From positions 1 to 32,227 of IMG/VR virus record IMGVR_UViG_3300008255_000316: a stretch of DNA of 32,227 nucleotides; one strand, written 5' to 3'. The notes under the pieces were generated by a model. That model ran no database searches. It had not been told where the DNA came from and saw only the letters and a list, made by a program, of their open reading frames with translations. The position numbers were made by a program, and so were the translations under genes. Every line of letters starts with the position of its first letter. Positions within the stretch are counted from its first letter, which is position 1. Below are positions 100 through 27,494 of this stretch, one piece after another. This DNA comes from a virus. Taxonomy: Duplodnaviria; Caudoviricetes.

Positions 100-128
100 A
101 ACAGATCTCCAGATATCAGATTACAGAT
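93..128 (-). repeat. Five spaced (A)TCTG units spanning the mtd stop codon (candidate IMH/3' cis element of the DGR)
   Basis: Minus strand reads aATCTGtaATCTGatATCTGgagATCTGttttgTCTGta. Plus strand has CAGAT at 102, 110, 117, 124 and CAGAC at 93. Confidence 0.5.
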
Positions 129-250
129 TGTCACAGGCCAGCCGCGACCCAATGCTTGTGCCCAGACTCCACGGAACGTAGTTCGCGAGCACAGCGCGGG
201 ACCCGGCCTTCACGCCGCTGTACCAGTACGCGCCAGCGATGTAGGTAATC
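121..250 (-). repeat. Putative DGR variable region (VR) at the 3' end of the adhesin gene
   Basis: C-terminus AGAYWYSGVKAGSRAVLANYVPWSLGTSIGSRLACD fits the CLec VR scaffold G-x-W-x-x-G-x-x-AGSR...PW...IG-x-R. Positions that are typically Asn in template repeats hold NNC/NNT codons (TAC, TAC, AGC, CTC, AAC, TAC, GTT, AGT, AGC). No template copy seen in this window. Confidence 0.75.
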
Positions 251-1311
251 AGGCCGGTGGCATTAGGCAAATAAGCCTGGCCTTTCCCTGCACCAAGTAC
301 GTTCTGCCAGGCGAAGCTGGTGGTATCGTGACGGTTGGACAGCTCATCAAGCCACTCATAAACATTGCCAACAGCGTCAACGATATTGAACGCCGAGATG
401 GCGGCGGGCTTGATGCCGGTGGCAGGATCGTGCGCTCCGGTGGAATTGTTCACTCGGCATCCAGTTCGCGCCCTGGCGCTGTTGGTGGTTTTTGTCCAGC
501 CGTAATCGTCCGCCCCGTCCTGCCCCTGGGGGTTACCGAAGGCTGACTTGATCCACTCGCCGTAGGTAAGAAGCCGCTTGTCTGCTCGCGCAGCCAGCTC
601 CCCGAAGGTGTACCAGTTCATGCCTTCGGTACCGGTAACGGGAACCTGACCATACTTCGACTGCAGGCGGCCGGTGGCAATGTGGAGTCCGTTGCTGCCG
701 CTTTCAAAGGTAATGGATTCCGCCGCGCTGGAGAGATAAATATCCACCCAGATATGACCGATCTTTACCATGCCCTCGGGGCTGCATTTGGGCCGGTTCT
801 GAAGGTCCCACACGGAATTGGGTATGATGCCGGTTGTGACGTTATCTTCCCAATCAATAGCCCCGGAGCCGAACCGGGTGCCTTCCGAGTCAACCGGCAC
901 CCAGAGGCCGTCGGTGCTTACTTTTCGGATGTACCCATAATGAAAGCCGCCGATTTTCCGACTGTTGTCGGCGCTATACCCGGCCGGGAAAGTGGTGTTC
1001 AAGCTGATGATGAACTGGCCATCGGCGCCGTCGTCCACAAGGTAAACGTAGTAGTCCTTGCCGACCTCAAAGGAACCGGTGTCAAGGTCTGCGTCCGAGA
1101 GCTCTACATCCGCATCCAAACGGAAGCTCTTCCACTGGGCGTTGTAGAGGGTGAGGGTCGTCCCCGCCTTGACCGTGATAATGTTCGCGGTATAGGCGAA
1201 GGGGTTTTTCTTTTCCAGTATCCTGTCACTGCGGACAAGCACGTCCATCATGCCGGAGAAAAGCGCGGCATCGGCGTCGGTAATATTGTCCTGTATAAGT
1301 CTTGCTATCAT
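121..1311 (-). CDS. mtd: Major tropism determinant-like tail adhesin (Mtd N-terminal region + FGE-type C-type lectin domain)
   Basis: 396 aa. Motifs LDTGSFEVGKDYYVY, NSRKIGGFHY, PEGMV, WVDIYLSS, KRLLTYGEW, DAVGNVYEW and terminal IGSRLACD. Last gene of the tail module. Confidence 0.88.
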   Translation of the reverse strand: MIARLIQDNITDADAALFSGMMDVLVRSDRILEKKNPFAYTANIITVKAGTTLTLYNAQWKSFRLDADVELSDADLDTGSFEVGKDYYVYLVDDGADGQFIISLNTTFPAGYSADNSRKIGGFHYGYIRKVSTDGLWVPVDSEGTRFGSGAIDWEDNVTTGIIPNSVWDLQNRPKCSPEGMVKIGHIWVDIYLSSAAESITFESGSNGLHIATGRLQSKYGQVPVTGTEGMNWYTFGELAARADKRLLTYGEWIKSAFGNPQGQDGADDYGWTKTTNSARARTGCRVNNSTGAHDPATGIKPAAISAFNIVDAVGNVYEWLDELSNRHDTTSFAWQNVLGAGKGQAYLPNATGLITYIAGAYWYSGVKAGSRAVLANYVPWSLGTSIGSRLACDNL

Positions 1312-15877: not shown

Positions 15878-16480
15878 TCATATATTACCCCCATACACCA
15901 CCGCAAAGGGTTTCACGTTCCGGCGGTACTCAGCTTCATCCATCCGGCGGTTAAATCCGTTGCCGTCGGGAAAACGGGCAGGCCAGGGATCGTTGAAGAT
16001 GATTTCCCGCTTCTCATCGTCCCACGCTATGGCGGCAATGTAGTGGCCTGGCTGTTTCAGGCAGAGCTGCACCGCCTTACCCTGGCGCAGAAACAGGGCG
16101 ACCTTGTCCATGGCACTTACCCAGATAAAGGTAGCCGCCACACCAAAGACCGCCGAAACCGCCACGGGGTAGAACTGGGGAATCTCGTTGCCGTACCAGT
16201 CCGCCGGGTGGGTTTCGGGCCGGGCCTTCTCCAGTTCCTCGTAGTTGCGGGGGTCGTTGAAAAAGTCCATGAGCACTTCTTCTGCCTGGGGTCTGTAGGC
16301 TCCGGGGCAGGTGATATCCACCTGGTGACCCATGGCGGCTATACAGCCCACGGCGGCGGTGGGGCCGCAGGAAACAAGCCACCCTCCGTCGGAGCGCTTG
16401 CGCAAGATTTCCTCGGTTGGGTTGTTGTGCTGGACGTAATACCGGTTACGGTCGTTCCAGAACTTTGCGCCAGTGATCAT
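15878..16480 (-). CDS. C39-like cysteine peptidase (candidate endolysin)
   Basis: 200 aa; YYVQ...SCGPT, GHYI, FNDPW give the Q/C/H/D papain-like set; AAGGAGG RBS. Confidence 0.8.
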   Translation of the reverse strand: MITGAKFWNDRNRYYVQHNNPTEEILRKRSDGGWLVSCGPTAAVGCIAAMGHQVDITCPGAYRPQAEEVLMDFFNDPRNYEELEKARPETHPADWYGNEIPQFYPVAVSAVFGVAATFIWVSAMDKVALFLRQGKAVQLCLKQPGHYIAAIAWDDEKREIIFNDPWPARFPDGNGFNRRMDEAEYRRNVKPFAVVYGGNI

Positions 16481-16491
16481 TCCCGGCCTCC

Positions 16492-16520
16492 TTGATTTCC
16501 TTCCGAAGAAGGGGTATATT
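16492..16520 (+). promoter_or_regulatory. Sigma70-type promoter, antisense to the late operon
   Basis: TTGATT (16492-16497) - 17 nt - TATATT (16515-16520), directly before a structured RNA. Confidence 0.7.
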
Positions 16521-16525
16521 TACCT

Positions 16526-16629
16526 ATGTGGTGACCGCCAAGGACCCTAATAGAAGCCGGGCCTTGCCGGAGCAATCCGGTCTGGAATGCAGAGGGTTTG
16601 AGTCCCTCCGGGCGGTTACCATACTTTTT
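16526..16629 (+). ncRNA. Structured tRNA-like small RNA antisense to the 3' end of the MuF gene
   Basis: Closing stem TGGTGACCGCC (16529-39) / GGCGGTTACCA (16611-21); hairpin CAAGG-A-CCC...GGG-CCTTG; CCGGA-GCAA-TCCGG GNRA hairpin; T-arm GAGGG-TTTGAGT-CCCTC; T5 run at 16625-29. Confidence 0.7.
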
Positions 16630-17857
16630 CATACGGCAACCCTTCGTGATGATTATCAATCCATCCCATCGTTCGTATCTGCAAGGCTGTGTTCTGATTC
16701 TTCTGTCGGAGAACCACGGTCAAGGCCTTGCCGTCACCAGTGTCTTTCACAAAGTGAAACTCCCTCCCCAGCCGGGGATAGTGGGGCTCGCTGTTTTCAT
16801 AGATTTTTTCAGGGCTTTGAAGGGTCTGATAAAGCTCTTCAAACTGCTCTTTCAAAATCTTCTGAGCGGCTTCCTTGTCTGCCGTCCCATGATATAAATC
16901 GCTATCGGTAGCCATAATTTTCGAGTCCTCAATCCCGGCCTTTCTCATGGCCTGGTATCGCTCGGACTCAAGGTTCCCCACTTGATAGTTAATTTGCTGG
17001 GGCACATAATCCTTTTCATTCATCCGGTCCAGCAGGGTGGCAAACTCACCCTGGGTAAGCCGGGTGTTGTCCATGTCGGCGCGGTAGCGGTCTACCACAT
17101 GCCGCAGGGCGCTTCTGCCGTCGCTCATTCTGGCATTTGCCAGATTGGTGTAGCGGCTGAAGTTCGGAGCCAGGGCTTCCCGTCCCGGGTTGTAGCGCCA
17201 TTCCTCGAGGGTGAACTTGTCCCAGTTCACTGGTGAGCCGTTTGACTCGATCATGGCCGGGGGGTTGCCCGAGGGGCCGGAGGAGACAACTTCCACGCCT
17301 TCCCGTTCTGCCCCCGATTCGCTTAAGGTAACAACCGAACATTCACAGCCCCAGCCGTTGGGCGGGCGGTGGGTGTTCCAGAAGGGGTCGTCGTAGCGCA
17401 GAGCCTTGTCGTGCATGGCCACATGATCCTGTCTGCGGTTCTTTCCCACCAGCTTAGACTTGTACACCCAGATGGGCCGAAGCTCGGCGCCTCGAAGTTG
17501 CTGACGGTACCGGCCCGCCTCATAGGCGGTGCGCATGTTCACGTGGTAGATCAGCTTCGTTCTCCAGTTGATGTACCCTTCATCATCCGGGCCCTTGTCG
17601 GCCCTGCCGTACCAGCCCTTCTTTTCCATCAAGCCCCTAAGGCCCTTCTGGAAGGTTTCGTAGCTCTCGCCCCCGTCCATGGCCTTGTTCATAAGGCCGA
17701 AGATGTCATCCAGCACGGCGGCATCCCGGGAATGGGCGACGGTAAAAGCGTGGGCGTGTTCGCCCCACTTCAAGTCGTCCCAGTCTTCGGTTTCCACCAC
17801 GGCCTTGCGCGAGAGATAGCGCCGGGCCTCTGCCGGATCGGGGATACGGTCAGCCAC
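16616..17857 (-). CDS. MuF/gp30 head morphogenesis protein with C-terminal putative BECR-fold (PBECR-like) RNase domain
   Basis: AFTVA, N.RTAY.AGRY.Q, R..H..MH, DDPFW....PPNGWGCECSV, W.YNPG (MuF domain). Then ~170 aa extension with LYH...L.SPEKIY...FVK...VVLR...IRTM. Confidence 0.85.
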   Translation of the reverse strand: MADRIPDPAEARRYLSRKAVVETEDWDDLKWGEHAHAFTVAHSRDAAVLDDIFGLMNKAMDGGESYETFQKGLRGLMEKKGWYGRADKGPDDEGYINWRTKLIYHVNMRTAYEAGRYRQQLRGAELRPIWVYKSKLVGKNRRQDHVAMHDKALRYDDPFWNTHRPPNGWGCECSVVTLSESGAEREGVEVVSSGPSGNPPAMIESNGSPVNWDKFTLEEWRYNPGREALAPNFSRYTNLANARMSDGRSALRHVVDRYRADMDNTRLTQGEFATLLDRMNEKDYVPQQINYQVGNLESERYQAMRKAGIEDSKIMATDSDLYHGTADKEAAQKILKEQFEELYQTLQSPEKIYENSEPHYPRLGREFHFVKDTGDGKALTVVLRQKNQNTALQIRTMGWIDNHHEGLPYEKVW

Positions 17858-24876: not shown

Positions 24877-25041
24877 CCGATACCTCCTAAATATTACCGC
24901 CTGATTCCCCGGCGGCCCGGTAGGGAAATAGTTAAAGGGCTTGAATTGGCGGTTTATCCCAACGCCTCGTTTTACGTCGCCCCCCGACGTGCTGGTTTAT
25001 CCGGTCTTTGCCAGCCTGTAGCACTGCGCCGGTGCTAAAAT

Positions 25042-25121
25042 TGGAGCCGAGGGGATTTGAACCCCTGTCCCGAAGCGTTCCCCTGTAGGGTATTTCGCTC
25101 CGGTCGAACCCATCCGGCCCC
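25042..25121 (-). ncRNA. Minimal tmRNA-like RNA consisting only of the tRNA-like domain (80 nt)
   Basis: GGGGCCG-GATGGGTTCGA-CCGGAGCG-AAATACCCTACAGGGGAA-CGCTTCGG-GAC-AGGGG-TTCAAAT-CCCCT-CGGCTCC-A. Has a 7-bp acceptor with G3:U70 and discriminator A, stemless D-loop with GG and TTCGA, 8-bp helix 2a, GAC linker and perfect T-arm. Confidence 0.88.
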
Positions 25122-25151: not shown

Positions 25152-25826
25152 TCACCCTAAGTTCTCCTTAATGTGATTTATCTCCTGTTCTTCCAAAGCT
25201 TTTTCATATGTTCTCGGAAAATGCGTTTCCCAGAACCTTGGCAGGTAGTCAAGCAGCTTCCCAATCTTGAGTTGTTTGCCGATTGCTCGCATCAACACAA
25301 GATGCGGCAGCAATACCACTGGATCACCCCTGTGCTCTACCCTGATGATGTCTCTATAGCAAATCCCAGCGGCCCGCATCGTTCTTTTTCTGAACCACCA
25401 CACCGGCGGGCCGCCAAAGGCGTAGCATGCCGGGCCGCCATTGAAAGTCAAAGATCCATACTTATAAGCGGAAATCACCGTGGTAATTTCGGCATAAGCA
25501 GCCCCCTGGGAATATCCTGAGAATACTACCTGGGCGGGGTAATGTTTTTTTATCGTCCCGGCAGTCCAACCCCAAACCCGGCGCATGGAATGCACAAATC
25601 CCCTGTGACCCCATATCCGCTTTCCGGCAATCCGGAACGATGGGGACGGCGGGAAGAATTCGAGGTTTATTTTCCAGTCTGTTGCAGAAACAGAGCCCTG
25701 GAAAAAGATGTAGAGAGTATTGCTTTTTATATCAAACCTGTACTTAGCTTGTATGTCCCGCTCTTCGTCGATGGTCTCCCATAGACCTGAGCAGGTTTCC
25801 TTGTAAAAACCCAGTAAGCCGTTCAC
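25152..25826 (-). CDS. Class 3 lipase (alpha/beta hydrolase)
   Basis: FQGS....DW..NL, GHRGF, SGYSQGAA nucleophile elbow, YAFGGP.V, R..H.GDPV..LP, C-terminal His. Confidence 0.88.
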   Translation of the reverse strand: MNGLLGFYKETCSGLWETIDEERDIQAKYRFDIKSNTLYIFFQGSVSATDWKINLEFFPPSPSFRIAGKRIWGHRGFVHSMRRVWGWTAGTIKKHYPAQVVFSGYSQGAAYAEITTVISAYKYGSLTFNGGPACYAFGGPPVWWFRKRTMRAAGICYRDIIRVEHRGDPVVLLPHLVLMRAIGKQLKIGKLLDYLPRFWETHFPRTYEKALEEQEINHIKENLG

Positions 25827-27386: not shown

Positions 27387-27411
27387 TTCGACCCTCCTTC
27401 TAATTACTGGC

Positions 27412-27479
27412 TGCTCATCAGGCCCGGGGCGCCACCGCCCGGGCGACGACCGGCCGCTTTCACGGCCCGCCGTTTCGCA
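27412..27479 (-). ncRNA. Type II hammerhead ribozyme
   Basis: TGC-GAAA-CGGC-g-GGCCG-TGAAAG-CGGCC-g-GTCG-TC/GCCCGGG-CGGTGGCGC-CCCGGGC-CTGATGA-GCA. Full core (CUGAUGA, GAAA, GUC) with stems I, II and III all paired. Predicted cut between 27445 and 27444. Confidence 0.92.
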
Positions 27480-27494
27480 TTGCACGGCAAACAA

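Follow-up and report, generated by a model that had tools for sequence, protein, structure and literature searches.

MuF polymorphic toxins, in which a MuF head domain is joined to a C-terminal enzyme domain within the head module of a temperate phage, are described as having protein immunity, and a small ORF follows 89.4% of 191 MuF toxin genes (PMC5576092). The available part of that report leaves proteobacterial MuF extensions without known domains unexplained. The PBECR and MuF_C domains have an active site that consists of a histidine plus a serine or threonine, and the portion of their description available to us names no RNA partner or antitoxin (PMC5512222). tRNA is the usual target of colicin-like BECR enzymes (10.64898/2026.08.28.747851); for PBECRs it has been suggested that they may avoid tRNA, with mRNA or CRISPR RNA as targets instead (PMC5512222). 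The locus described here shares the protein architecture and genomic setting of MuF polymorphic toxins, but differs from them in having an antisense RNA in the gap behind muF and a variable next gene.

A MuF protein with a predicted nuclease domain

The window, which is the whole 32,227-nucleotide stretch of viral DNA that was analysed, is a Mu-like phage with genes for a transposase, a MuB-type ATPase, Gam, GemA, terminase, portal, MuF, and head and tail proteins, and its named relatives are Spirochaetia and Treponema. The muF gene (16616..17857, minus strand; a 413-aa ORF) is preceded by the portal gene and followed by genes for the head maturation protease and the major head protein. Residues 56-175 match the Pfam family Phage_Mu_F (PF04233) above its cut-off (E 6e-15), and the protein matches PHROG 220, "minor head protein and DNA pilot". 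By its PF04233 domain and its position between portal and head genes, it belongs to the MuF proteins. A preliminary description of this DNA reported that the MuF has a C-terminal extension and is followed by a 135-bp gap, and both hold: the gap spans 16481-16615, and the next gene occupies 15878-16480. Elsewhere, the left end of the window has a tail gene (121-1311, minus strand) that is Mtd-like and includes an FGE-sulfatase-type domain, and the early region contains a gene resembling class 3 lipases (25152-25826, minus strand). Just downstream of the Gam gene is a type II hammerhead ribozyme (27405-27480, minus strand) that scores 54 bits, above the gathering score.

The extension had been proposed to adopt a BECR-type nuclease fold, and the models and profiles point the same way. 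An AlphaFold2 model of residues 235-413 (16619..17155, minus strand) has a pLDDT of 95.7, and its secondary structure follows the BECR topology, with a helix and then a four- to five-stranded sheet. A VIA search against 48,161 solved chains puts chains of RelE/ParE/HigB, colicin or CDI type in all of its first 24 rows, with Z at or below 4.8, and the likeness to solved RNases is modest (Z 3-4.8). The Foldseek comparison that had been suggested as a check is divided: neither the full-length nor the domain model matches an entry in the PDB at E 0.001 or below, but MuF C-terminal and polyvalent nuclease proteins are matched among the viral models of BFVD, six of them at E 0.001 or below. The sequences of solved structures, searched with our domain alignment (A2), gave 0 matches.

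Profile comparison aligns the tail to MuF_C-type tails with a probability of 95.7, and places its histidine opposite that of the MuF_C clade. The Pfam model PBECR2 scores the window tail below threshold (E 0.041; 14.5 bits against a gathering cut-off of 27.1) and reaches E < 0.01 in 4 of 77 homologues, and the window domain lies below the Pfam cut-offs of all three subfamilies (PF18810, PF18812 and PF18819). His323 (16889..16891), the predicted catalytic histidine, is invariant in 77/77 aligned homologues, and Thr396 (16670..16672) in the last core strand, the predicted second active-site residue, is at least 90% conserved, a pattern that matches the PBECR site of PMC5512222. The MuF tail is thus predicted to be a PBECR-clade domain of no assigned subfamily, and a ribonuclease.

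A tRNA-shaped RNA antisense to the muF stop codon

A promoter and a small structured RNA had both been described on the opposite strand of the gap. The sigma-70-type promoter-like site TTGATT-17-TATATT is located at 16492..16520 on the plus strand, matches the consensus at 9/12 positions, and has an equivalent with identical spacing and at the same distance in 28 of 31 distinct loci. Taken alone the sequence is weak, as three such sites occur in 2.5 kb versus 1.1 in shuffled sequences. Its -35 box partly overlaps the ribosome-binding site of the next gene on the other strand, and in three homologous loci (L011, L013 and L086) the two are apart.

The predicted RNA is ~95 nucleotides in length (16528..16621, plus strand). 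Folding of 16528-16635 is more stable than expected (z = -3.87; 0/200 shuffles were equally stable) and reproduces the structure that had been drawn, namely a 12-bp closing stem, two hairpins of which one has a GCAA loop, the GAGGG-TTTGAGT-CCCTC arm, and a 3' end overlapping the muF stop codon. When aligned to homologues, the closing stem becomes an extended acceptor-like stem (16528..16540, paired with 16609-16621) in which 87.8% of cells are paired and 8/12 pairs exhibit double-sided changes. A D-arm-like hairpin follows (16545..16561), in which tRNA positions 18 and 19 are represented by G16553 and A16554, and then an arm at the anticodon position (16562..16585) that ranges from 9 to 41 nucleotides in homologues and has no conserved loop. 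The T arm (16592..16608) consists of 5 bp and a 7-nucleotide loop, with U16598 and U16599 at tRNA positions 55 and 56, and 96.7% of its cells are paired. The GCAA tetraloop is present in the window, but is not kept in homologues.

The 3' strand of the RNA is antisense to the muF stop codon (16616-16618) and to Trp413, whose complement is CCA (16619-16621). The preliminary description had the stem ending in ACCA. A CCA is indeed encoded, but it is paired in the predicted fold, is present in only 24/30 aligned copies, and tracks the last MuF codon, becoming CCG where that codon is Arg. The ACCA end is probably not free in the primary transcript. The T5 run that was noted (16625..16629) is present, is antisense to MuF Glu/Lys codons, and is T-rich in most homologues, and might be a 3' end signal; a terminator scan of the window calls none there, so both ends of the RNA are inferred.

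Neither ARAGORN nor Rfam calls the window RNA, and ARAGORN calls no tRNA at this position in any of 27 loci. No Rfam family, whether of Y RNAs, C4, the DUF3800-associated motifs or others, matches the RNA at its gathering score in the window or in 20 MuF loci. We considered that the antisense RNA might be a mini-tmRNA, as the D loop of three copies hinted, and rejected this identity because Rfam does not match it. The phage does carry a separate mini-tmRNA at 25039-25121 (minus strand; Rfam tmRNA, 65 bits) that is missing the mRNA-like domain and represents a second tRNA mimic. Its DNA has no match in five related, incomplete records. A TLD-only gene similar to it is reported in mycobacteriophage DS6A and, in the available part of that work, may titrate SmpB (PMC4131195).

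Conservation beside homologous domains

Close loci were drawn from viral, metagenome and genome collections. Two that are interrupted by a host gene inside the domain (L093 and L094) and one fragment (L113) were dropped. The RNA is found antisense at the muF stop in 39/39 of these loci, which represent 31 distinct sequences including that of the window, so the structure is conserved next to homologous domains as had been anticipated. It is single-copy in 38/39 loci. Among 30 aligned copies, 83.8% of stem cells are paired, versus 72.9% in shuffled alignments and 27-51% with slid partners, and the stems contain 104 double-sided changes, a number matched by 0/500 shuffles. The arms are arranged in the order of a tRNA: a long acceptor-like stem, a D arm, a third arm, a linker and a T arm. 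The acceptor-like stem has 11-12 bp versus 7 bp in tRNA, and the two pairs adjoining the CCA are often open (11/30 and 12/30 copies).

Contacts between the D and T loops could be compared in the 19/30 copies that have an 11-nucleotide D loop. Position 6 of the D loop (tRNA position 18) and T-loop position 55 are G·U in 5 copies and A·G in 14 (19/19), and position 7 (tRNA position 19) and T-loop position 56 are G-C in 10, A-U in 8 and U-U in 1 (G-C or A-U in 18/19). These are the top two among 77 D-by-T column pairs, and all four combinations of their states are seen. On an RNA tree built without the D and T loops, the elbow states change 3 and 4 times, with only 1 and 2 changes forced by strong branches. 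In these alignments the two position pairs swap together as in the tRNA elbow, and it is the tRNA shape that is kept; decoding features are not.

A covariance model of the RNA (R1) was trained on 29/39 loci, and the remaining loci are near-duplicates of training rows. In 150 genomes of the same phylum, R1 has one strong match, which is beside muF, and no strong stand-alone copy; of its weaker matches, the 14 that were fetched, all but two places, are host tRNAs. In a set of 72 other loci the model finds L039 (E 1e-5) and L032 (E 0.09) and no others; the two were held out from training, and each match lies exactly across the muF stop in antisense. R1 missed two distant members of the home cluster, L014 and L166. 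A degenerate DNA pattern scan for the RNA returned three contigs, all already in the locus set.

The one locus with two copies (L008, 429-625) has unlike RNAs in tandem under one promoter-like site, and of these the distal one shares 87% identity over 69 nucleotides with the RNA of another locus, L002. Such unlike copies in tandem resemble orphan immunity arrays. The similarity of RNAs is correlated with that of the nucleases (Spearman 0.47-0.60), a correlation that is already predicted by linkage alone. Two loci with similar nucleases (L006 and L007) have different RNA subtypes, which argues against a strict cognate code between nuclease and RNA.

The downstream gene

No convincing immunity gene had been recognized after muF, and the homologues bear this out. 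The next gene in the window (15878..16480, minus strand) encodes a 200-aa Peptidase_C39-like protein (Pfam E 5e-4) that is likely a cell-wall hydrolase. The corresponding genes in homologues, for 12/13 proteins scanned, belong to five unrelated families, namely C39 peptidase, DUF261, M15 peptidase, pesticin/lysozyme and amidase; the thirteenth is the host gene that interrupts L093. At all listed close loci except the truncated L093, the gap is 129-222 nucleotides long and is followed by genes of these five families. The product of the next gene is therefore probably not an immunity protein but a cell-wall hydrolase, and the slot after the RNA is probably the lysin slot of these spirochaete phages, freely swapped among families. 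The small conserved downstream ORF that is typical of MuF toxins with protein immunity is missing at window-type loci.

Two loci with other MuF tails (L015, which has an ADP-ribosyltransferase, and L016) have short overlapping ORFs of 68-76 codons after the muF stop, which as expected would fit protein immunity.

A sister clade and joint loss of RNA and active site

A wider set of MuF loci, which included the best 80 matches from each of three broad scans, comprised 363 usable loci that reduced to 203 non-redundant ones. Among these 203 listed loci, the tails form four clusters (50, 47, 43 and 17 members) and 14 singletons, and there are 32 short MuFs. Among the matches listed, an antisense promoter-like site occurs in 14/50, 16/47, 13/43 and 15/17 loci of the respective clusters, in 2/14 singletons and in 0/32 short MuFs, and a gap of at least 80 nucleotides (or no long ORF found) follows 139/157 of the non-redundant tails in the four clusters.

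The cluster of 43 is a sister clade of MuF_C domains that includes phage Mu, and it has an RNA at the same place that is more canonically tRNA-like. Its RNAs have a GG in the D loop and UUCGA in the T loop, and their covarying stems are 83.1% paired (0/500 shuffles). They encode no CCA and scarcely overlap coding sequence. One such RNA is present in 173/5,426 E. coli genomes, where it is often mislabelled as a tRNA: RefSeq gives this E. coli prophage copy as tRNA-OTHER on 13/25 of the records listed. Together with the gaps counted above, this makes the pairing a common one. A model of the sister-clade RNA (R2) has weak held-out matches beside the muF stop in L039, L226, L153, L154 and two home-clade loci; it matches nothing at the stop where the MuF is short or has no His, and does not match the window RNA. 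In a single contig set for one sister-clade locus (L069), read depth is flat and breaks with foreign ends at the muF stop, and strand and level are not readable from it. Seven raw-read runs gave 0 reads at this locus, and neither result bears on transcription.

In the sister clade, the gap is associated with the predicted catalytic histidine. Among the matches listed, it is found in 33/35 loci that have the histidine and in 1/8 loci that do not (Fisher p 8.5e-6). On a quick tree this distribution needs 7 changes, 6 of them forced by well-supported branches. Judged from these sequences, the histidine and the gap disappear together in at least 6 lineages, Mu among them. Mu, MuM16-1, JBD30 and Bhz63 have neither the histidine nor the gap, and Pmp9 and B3 have both. 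Mu's domain was independently considered inactive (PMC5512222, in the part available). In two His-bearing loci (L172 and L369), and probably in a third (L298), the RNA is displaced behind an inserted gene, with the displaced copies ~180-400 nucleotides away, and L226, which was scored as tight, has two RNA copies by eye. The real exceptions to joint loss are L118, which has the histidine and no gap, and L376, which lacks the histidine and keeps the RNA.

A crude detector of the RNA architecture did not reproduce the association (15/35 His-bearing versus 1/8 His-less loci, p 0.22; p 0.53 in another tail cluster), so the histidine test rests on gap size and by-eye reading. This hand-written cloverleaf detector is insensitive and noisy. 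Outside the home clade, folding z-scores do little to separate the groups.

A second conserved RNA motif, likewise antisense after the muF stop, is found with another tail cluster (L022, L077, L176, L189, L212, L227, L248, L253, L299, L313, L359, L383 and L393). By eye, in alignment A9, tracts in its D and T loops appear to change together as a kissing pair of 4-5 bp; automatic parsing of these loops is noisy, with 3.0 nucleotides for a copy's own pairs versus 2.6 for mismatched ones (permutation p 0.011). MuF proteins with core PBECR2 tails (L020, L035, L036, L046, L047, L049, L058, L067 and L068) are followed by antisense promoter-like sites and structured stretches that are not tRNA-like, and that probably represent further RNA families. 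In phage B3, a tiny annotated hypothetical ORF (ORF34; L161, 1840-1938) fills the RNA gap, and may be a misannotated antisense RNA.

Possible functions of the RNA

The explanation that we consider somewhat probable is that the tRNA-shaped RNA is an antitoxin for a virion-packaged predicted tRNase, and takes the place of an immunity protein. The steps by which this might work are given in order of falling certainty. The domain would be an active tRNase resembling colicin D. The RNA would be transcribed in lysogens, and shortly after the DNA enters a cell, from a host-type promoter of its own, with no need for translation. Its tRNA shape would occupy the nuclease, and the long paired acceptor stem and scrambled anticodon arm would exclude it from translation and make it a poor substrate. 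Finally, MuF would be packaged and delivered with the DNA, such that a cell would be protected if it contains the intact genome of the phage and poisoned if it does not.

The antitoxin reading is favored because the RNA is tied to an intact nuclease site, retains the shape of a tRNA but no decoding features, is served by a promoter-like site of its own, and resides where an immunity gene is expected, and also because colicin-like BECR enzymes mostly cut tRNA. Against it stand the low Z scores, the empty Foldseek search of the PDB, the exceptional loci L118 and L376, the null result of the detector, and the few elbow swaps that are forced on the tree. The suggestion that PBECRs avoid tRNA, made in the accessible text of PMC5512222, argues against a tRNase in particular. 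The joint loss of histidine and RNA fits a substrate or cofactor RNA equally well.

Such a role is the first alternative to weigh. The RNA could be a substrate or cargo of the nuclease that is trimmed or carried, and whose mature form decoys a host tRNA-cutting defence or, as a cofactor, aims the nuclease. An enzyme whose purpose is to process the RNA should be lost together with it, and the 3' end, with no clear terminator, may need cutting. Sister-clade RNAs also have canonical D and T loops, which would suit host tRNA-binding enzymes. However, the promoter-like site opposes the late genes, so the RNA would be made when MuF is not, and there is no variable unpaired segment of constant length that could serve as a guide. 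Moreover, His-bearing loci rarely lose the RNA (1 clear case in 35), an asymmetry that is expected of an antidote. We regard this alternative as unlikely.

Quite unlikely, in our judgement, is that the RNA acts in cis as a type I-like antisense repressor, by pairing with leaky late mRNA at the 3' end of muF and causing its decay, with the fold needed only for stability or processing. Across the gap, complementarity between the RNA and the late transcript is complete, and the RNA reaches over the stop codon; its link to an active domain also agrees with this role. A conserved tertiary elbow is nonetheless unnecessary for pairing, sister-clade RNAs barely reach the coding sequence, displaced copies persist at a distance, and the second copy in L008 is heterologous.

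It has also to be asked whether RNase P exposes the ACCA and the RNA is then charged, as a cleavage-resistant tRNA or a ligand of EF-Tu. A CCA is encoded in most copies, removal of a 5' leader could free ACCA on a stem of 8-9 bp given the often open pairs near it, and the tRNA-OTHER label of the E. coli prophage copy is in keeping with this proposal. But the CCA follows the last codon of MuF and is absent from the sister clade, the anticodon arm varies widely in length and has no conserved loop, and ARAGORN's calls number 0 in 27 loci, all of which make a charged RNA highly improbable.

The chance that the gap encodes a tiny sense-strand immunity peptide, for which the window has a 32-codon frame (16622-16524) with an ATG overlapping the end of MuF, or that the RNA is an unrelated passenger, is close to negligible: the frame ranges from 5 to 265 codons in 31 loci, lacks a usual start codon in 7 and has indels that ignore it, for which lack of conservation we rejected the peptide, and the 150 genomes hold no strong copy of the RNA away from muF.

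If the antitoxin reading is extended to the other families, a broader picture can be drawn, which we offer tentatively and which as a whole is doubtful. It would be a widespread poison and antidote borne by phage heads, in which MuF delivers a tRNase and the incoming DNA at once transcribes a neutralising tRNA-shaped RNA, without translation. The poison would act on cells that degrade the incoming DNA or carry no prophage, and lysogens would be immune and able to accumulate antidote RNAs from other phages. The partner RNA fold would differ among PBECR families, from the canonical tRNA elbow to longer kissing D and T loops. The antitoxin reading offers an answer to why many MuF proteins have a nuclease-like tail and no immunity gene, and to why the domain of phage Mu itself is catalytically inactive. 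This reading is directly testable, since cultured phages supply natural pairs, with B3 having the module and JBD30 and Mu lacking it.

Comparison with known systems

Our literature search, which covered mostly open literature, found no paper that describes an RNA beside MuF or PBECR genes; the supplements of PMC5737381 and PMC10690425 may list these motifs without a function. From the sequence comparisons, the pairing of protein and RNA is real and conserved, and is apparently undescribed in the literature searched.

The RNA motifs associated with DUF3800 are a parallel, as these dissimilar structures are each tied to one protein domain, occur in either orientation and, in the available part of their description, have no assigned function (PMC5737381). 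They differ in the protein domain concerned, and their Rfam families match neither the window nor the 20 MuF loci. The Y RNA YrlA is also similar, in that it is a tRNA mimic of ~100 nucleotides with D and T arms that is encoded beside the gene of its protein partner and also occurs in phages (PMC4201824). However, in YrlA, whose partner is Ro60, the arms are permuted such that an acceptor-like loop separates T from D (PMC4201824, in the part available), whereas the window RNA has the canonical order of arms, adjoins muF and has no match in Rfam. With tRNA itself, the window RNA shares the cloverleaf and, by prediction, the contacts between D and T loops, and its model cross-matches host tRNAs, but it has no 7-bp acceptor stem with a free CCA and no conserved anticodon arm.

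Type III antitoxins form pseudoknots, are co-transcribed from a position upstream of the toxin and are cut by a MazF-fold toxin. The proposed logic of the window system is that of ToxIN, CptIN and TenpIN, in which, according to the available parts of the reports, a structured RNA directly inhibits an endoribonuclease (PMC8860590, PMC12283969). These antitoxins are described there as tandem repeats, whereas the MuF-associated RNA is nearly always a single cloverleaf. The RNA also differs from them in lying downstream, on the opposite strand and behind its own promoter-like site, and its partner is a BECR domain fused to a virion protein. Thus, the idea of a type III-like pair, which the preliminary description had put forward, stands insofar as a conserved tRNA-shaped RNA is tied to the domain and is lost jointly with its histidine, but location, strand, copy number and toxin fold all speak against formal membership. 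On the best reading, the pairing would work like a type III antitoxin without being a member of that class. If this is true, tRNA mimicry would be an added form of antitoxin, and RNA an added form of immunity for polymorphic toxins carried in virions.
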